Shown here piece after piece: positions 15,408 through 15,432 of a stretch of 64,000 nucleotides of DNA. The DNA is taken from the NCBI RefSeq assembly GCF_056712565.1, contig NZ_CM160072.1; one strand, given 5' to 3'. Each line of letters begins with the position of its first letter. Positions within the stretch are counted from its first letter, which is position 1. The position numbers were made by a program, and so were the translations under genes. The notes under the pieces were generated by a model that saw only the letters and a program-made list of their open reading frames with translations, was not told where the DNA came from and searched no databases.

Positions 15408-15432
15408 CCTGCTTTTTTATACTAACTTGAGC
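15408..15432. other. Bacteriophage lambda attachment site attB (BOB'), unoccupied
   Basis: Exact cctgcttttttatactaacttgagcgaaacg with 15-bp common core GCTTTTTTATACTAA at 15411..15425, between ybhC and ybhB; no phage genes adjacent. Confidence 0.9.

Follow-up and report, generated by a model that had tools for sequence, protein, structure and literature searches.

An intact, unoccupied phage lambda attB between ybhC and ybhB in a UTI89-like Escherichia coli chromosome

Introduction

Phage lambda integrates by site-specific recombination, in which Int and IHF act on attP, the B and B' sites of attB are bound, and strands are exchanged in a staggered manner at a 7-bp overlap. The strand exchange carried out by lambda Int at the overlap passes through a Holliday junction (PMC1807965). 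The chromosomal target, attB, is located at about 17 min, between the ybhC and ybhB genes (PMC3467070), and a 21-bp attB sequence, CTGCTTTTTTATACTAACTTG, has served as a recombination substrate in the form of the attB part of primer attB-petF (PMC2831311).

Here, we analysed a stretch of 64,000 nucleotides (64 kb) of DNA, referred to as the window, for which a preliminary description had reported an exact copy of lambda attB between these two genes. The site is almost certainly the primary phage lambda attB (BOB') of an E. coli chromosome, with no prophage integrated.

Results

The window is collinear with positions 755015-819014 of the chromosome of E. coli UTI89 (NC_007946.1) at 99.98% identity, the sole departure from collinearity being a 1426-bp insertion at 49042-50467. 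According to the UTI89 RefSeq annotation, the gene order is galE, modFE, acrZ, modABC, ybhA, pgl, ybhDHIJ, ybhC, the att site, ybhB, bioA, bioBFCD, uvrB and onwards to ybiT. Furthermore, the 2.2 kb around the att site are 100% identical in many B2/ExPEC genomes, including UTI89, S88, APEC O1, IHE3034 and ATCC 11775. The DNA of the window is of the E. coli phylogroup B2/ExPEC type and UTI89-like.

The att site is situated in a 151-bp gap (15365-15515) that separates ybhC, encoding a putative acyl-CoA thioester hydrolase (14081-15364, minus strand), on the gal side from ybhB, encoding a homologue of the PEBP-family 'kinase inhibitor' (15516-15992, minus strand), on the bio side. The start codon of ybhC is a GTG located 46 bp from the core of the site, and the stop codon of ybhB lies 90 bp from the core. 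This place between gal and bio corresponds to the classical gal-att-bio arrangement, and the ORF listing together with the UTI89 RefSeq annotation bears out the placement between ybhC and ybhB given in the preliminary description. On the far side of ybhC, a cluster of REP/BIME palindromes occupies positions 13950-14070, between ybhJ and ybhC, and because of this cluster the length of the ybhJ-ybhC gap differs between strains. The palindromes also explain why the number of matching places per genome had a median of 24 for a 2.2-kb query covering the att region, against one for the 151-bp gap alone.

Several other elements were observed at a distance from the att site. The insertion at 49042-50467 is an IS4 element of 1426 bp, with a transposase ORF at 49108-50454 (plus strand) and a 13-bp target duplication; it interrupts fiu, a catecholate siderophore receptor gene, and is absent from UTI89. 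Among 5426 complete E. coli genomes, 30, from diverse backgrounds, have the same IS4 insertion in fiu in their annotation, a recurrence that suggests either a hot spot for IS4 or an old insertion. When the entire window was scanned against Rfam, two matches exceeded the gathering score, namely a Moco riboswitch (24841-24985, plus strand, 103 bits) upstream of moaA, and naRNA4 (45217-45287, minus strand, 72.7 bits) between hcxB and ybiJ as annotated in UTI89, the latter match being probably REP-derived. Additionally, the interval between rhlE and dinG contains, at about 40396-40593 (minus strand), only a truncated NADAR-domain pseudogene that lacks its N-terminus in the UTI89 RefSeq annotation and that may be what is left of a longer gene once located there.

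The 25-bp attB stretch CCTGCTTTTTTATACTAACTTGAGC was found by exact string match at 15408-15432 (plus strand). It includes the 15-bp common core GCTTTTTTATACTAA at 15411-15425 (plus strand), the sequence that attB, attP, attL and attR have in common and that forms the direct repeat at prophage ends elsewhere; on both strands of the 64 kb, with up to two mismatches allowed, this was the sole match. Two putative core-type Int-binding sites, which we take from established knowledge and the consensus CAACTTNNT to be B and B', are located at 15409-15417 (CTGCTTTTT, plus strand) and at 15421-15429 (CAAGTTAGT, minus strand). Between these imperfect inverted sites lies the 7-bp overlap region O, TTTATAC (15416-15422, plus strand), whose role is taken from established knowledge and from Figure 1 of PMC1807965. 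The resulting minimal attB (B-O-B') of about 21 bp, at 15409-15429 (plus strand), is identical to the 21-bp substrate of PMC2831311. In the same way, the attL oligonucleotide of PMC1807965 matches exactly at 15392-15425 through its B-arm and core part, and the attR oligonucleotide at 15411-15440 through its core and B'-arm part; the P and P' arm parts of both oligonucleotides were not found in the window. The core is identical to that of attP, attL and attR, and the flanks are simple host arms, equivalent to the B and B' arms of attL and attR, as befits an attB, for which arm-type Int, IHF, Xis and Fis sites are not required. The string matches at 15408-15432 and 15411-15425 uphold the earlier statement that the exact attB, including its 15-bp core, is present.

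Judged from base composition, exact matches would be expected 8e-5 times for a 15-mer and 8e-11 times for a 25-mer, so the att match is not due to chance. A fortuitous or secondary-site resemblance in place of a true attB, for which the only argument is that the core is AT-rich and of low complexity, has a vanishingly small likelihood, given that an exact 25-mer is so rarely expected, that both the 151-bp surroundings and the genes on either side correspond to the canonical locus, and that genuine attL and attR sites have identical host arms. Expectation, locus context, attL/attR arms and oligonucleotide matches together refute it.

B, O and B' are contiguous in the window, an arrangement that joins the left arm of attL to the right arm of attR through one core. 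A search of both strands of the window that tolerated as many as two mismatches revealed neither a second nor a degenerate copy of the core. Comparison of a whole lambda prophage from a lysogen with the window (blastn and tblastx) returned only noise (E >= 1), as did tblastn searches of the 64-kb window with Int and Xis. Moreover, no phage genes are annotated in the collinear 64 kb of UTI89, where all genes are chromosomal housekeeping genes. The locus is thus in the unoccupied state, with B and B' contiguous, the core unduplicated and no int, xis or other phage genes nearby; since B and B' are still contiguous, no element is integrated between ybhC and ybhB in the window. On this evidence, the claims of a single uninterrupted copy and of the absence of adjacent phage genes proved correct, and the further claim that the strain is not a lysogen at this locus holds for the locus and for the 64-kb window, the contiguous B-O-B' standing against the attL and attR found in lysogens.

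Prophages that share sequence may break or collapse short-read assemblies, and an empty site could accordingly arise if a resident prophage had been collapsed or omitted during assembly. We regard this as very unlikely here, because one read-through sequence with unique flanks spans B-O-B' without a break, because the window contains no attL or attR hybrid with a P or P' arm, and because close relatives show the identical empty site in many independent closed genomes.

Three genomes in which the site is occupied were used as positive controls: K-12 AG100 (NZ_LN832404.1), O157:H7 NE122 and EC21Z-014. In K-12 AG100, the order is ybhC, int, xis, the remainder of lambda and ybhB, and two copies of the core stand 45,431 bp apart, bounding a prophage of 45.4 kb, with attL reading ...gttgaagcctGCTTTTTTATACTAAgttggcatta... 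and attR reading ...ctcgttcaGCTTTTTTATACTAActtgagcgaaacggg.... The lambdoid prophage at the site measures 38.6 kb in O157:H7 NE122, where it bears nleB2, nleC, nleH1-1 and nleD, and 46.2 kb in EC21Z-014. In all three controls, int and xis lie beside ybhC, direct repeats of the core bound the prophage, and the host arms match the window. Their integrases are identical to lambda Int at 353-356 of 356 positions (353/356 in O157:H7 NE122 and 354/356 in EC21Z-014). Thus, natural lysogens carry the insertion exactly at the core, with attL as B-O-P' and attR as P-O-B'.

Phage records also mark the boundary of the core. Phage DN1, a lambda(DE3)-bio transducing phage, has an attR annotated ahead of ybhB-bioABFCD, and its alignment with the window starts exactly at the core; both DN1 and vB_EcoP-720R6 match the window at 99-100% from the core onward. 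This pattern is the expected outcome of aberrant excision from the att site.

A different trace of the locus was observed within PPompW lambdoid phages, as in PPompW_132418 (LC567822.1), where an internal, degenerate lambda attR at about 3465-3600 matches window positions 15414-15500. It comprises a left flank resembling a P arm, the near-core GGCTTTTTATACTAA and approximately 90 bp of the bio-side B' arm, reaching the hairpin that follows ybhB; this bio-side host arm shows 83% identity to the window and an 8-bp deletion. The degenerate attR stands directly upstream of the T3SS effector genes espO, nleG and espM. The PPompW lambdoid phages putatively integrate at ompW, judging by their name, and the internal attR looks like a fossil of an att-lambda ancestor that captured host DNA and subsequently changed its integration module.

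To place the empty state in the species, the 151-bp gap was used as a query against 5426 complete E. coli genomes, a non-random set with an excess of O157:H7 and laboratory K-12 strains. The gap was matched in 5422 of these genomes, at a median of one place per genome, and was uninterrupted in 3490 of the 5426 (64%). Nearly all the others (about 36%) matched at two places, with the break at query position 47/48, equivalent to 15411/15412 of the window, at the left end of the core; 3490 single matches and about 1930 double ones are consistent with the 7349 places counted in all. These breaks at the core indicate that lambdoid prophages make heavy use of the site for integration in E. coli, and that empty is its majority state.

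Int/Xis-mediated excision is conservative and would regenerate the exact attB sequence. An empty site could consequently be a healed one, which a lambdoid prophage occupied until its excision brought back the original sequence. Occupied sites are common in E. coli, as the approximately 36% of complete genomes split at the core attest, and conservative excision would leave exactly the sequence of the window. Nevertheless, we consider such a history unlikely, since the five B2/ExPEC genomes named above share the same empty 2.2 kb at 100% identity and, among the close relatives compared, nothing points to recent occupancy in the B2/ST95-like lineage. A healed site and a never-occupied one are indistinguishable by sequence, and a past excision is compatible with the site being currently unoccupied. 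The reading of an unoccupied primary attB applies in either case.

The gap between ybhC and ybhB was also observed to be unusually well conserved. Positions 15365-15515 (151 bp) differ at 0-2 positions from K-12, O157:H7 and EC21Z-014, whereas ybhC and ybhB differ by 2.4-3.0%; in the ungapped comparison with K-12 and EC21Z-014, the 3' end of ybhJ and the ybhJ-ybhC gap were left out, being out of register from REP indels. The gap is >=99% identical in 5344 of 5422 genomes, and the flanking coding sequence is less conserved. It contains, at 15483-15509 (minus strand), a hairpin with an 11-bp stem of the GCCAGAUGGCG/CGCCAUCUGGC type and a 5-nt loop, located 7 bp past the stop codon of ybhB and predicted, in an 81-nt context, to have a folding energy of -26.1 kcal/mol (z = -7). 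A promoter and terminator consensus scan of 15250-15650 made no calls, placing neither a ybhC promoter nor a ybhB terminator; the hairpin was not called a terminator because it has no adjacent T-run, which the scanner requires. In the Rfam scan of the entire window, no RNA family was placed in the att region. It is conceivable, though rather doubtful, that this conservation goes beyond the role of the gap as a phage target and reflects, for example, an unrecognised host regulatory element (the ybhC leader or promoter, or the hairpin at 15483-15509) or homogenisation mediated by lambdoid phages.

Discussion

The empty lambda attB between ybhC and ybhB is real, intact and ordinary, and it is already known; its observation has limited practical value and brings nothing new for biology. 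The proportions of 64% empty and about 36% split at the core provide a useful population baseline for the site. In addition, the site is free of any lambdoid prophage and hence of the effectors and other cargo found there in O157:H7.

On the model of lambda, integration at this locus would begin with the assembly of lambda Int and host IHF on the phage attP. The Int-IHF-attP complex would then capture the attB of about 21 bp through the core-type sites B and B', and Int would exchange strands at either edge of the 7-bp overlap TTTATAC. The expected product would be a prophage with attL (B-O-P') at one end and attR (P-O-B') at the other, lying between ybhC and ybhB. Given that its 21 bp are 100% identical to a functional minimal attB, we infer that the site of the window would recombine if provided with Int and IHF, which supports the preliminary description in regarding it as available for Int-based integration. 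In other E. coli, this very sequence is where prophages with an Int 99% identical to lambda Int reside. Tools for single-copy integration by lambda Int (pLDR, CRIM-lambda and attP plasmids) should therefore work at this intact wild-type attB.

For the verification of such integrants, primer ybhC159 (PMC7440800) matches the window at 15251-15270 (ACCAGGCGCGGTTTGATCAG), and the paired primer ybhB122 (PMC7440800) has no exact match in the window strain, so K-12 verification primers would need checking. The vectors pLDR8 and pLDR10 and the Gateway derivatives attB1 and attB2 rely on the same 21-25 bp as the target of Int; the Gateway sites, however, have mutated overlap regions, whereas the window retains the wild-type overlap TTTATAC.

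Compared with the attB of K-12 (BOB', about 17 min, gal-att-bio), the window has the same core, the same 21-bp site, the same flanking genes and the same order. Its 151-bp gap is 100% identical to that of the K-12 derivative EC600 and shows no mismatches to the arms of K-12 AG100, whereas the coding sequences of ybhC and ybhB in this B2/ExPEC-type DNA differ by 2.4-2.5% from those of K-12. The occupied attL and attR sites of K-12 AG100 (lambda), of O157:H7 (the prophage with nleB2, nleC, nleH1 and nleD) and of EC21Z-014 have the same host arms and core as the window. In these occupied forms, the core is duplicated around 38.6-46.2 kb of phage DNA containing int and xis, whereas the window has a single copy of the core and no such DNA.
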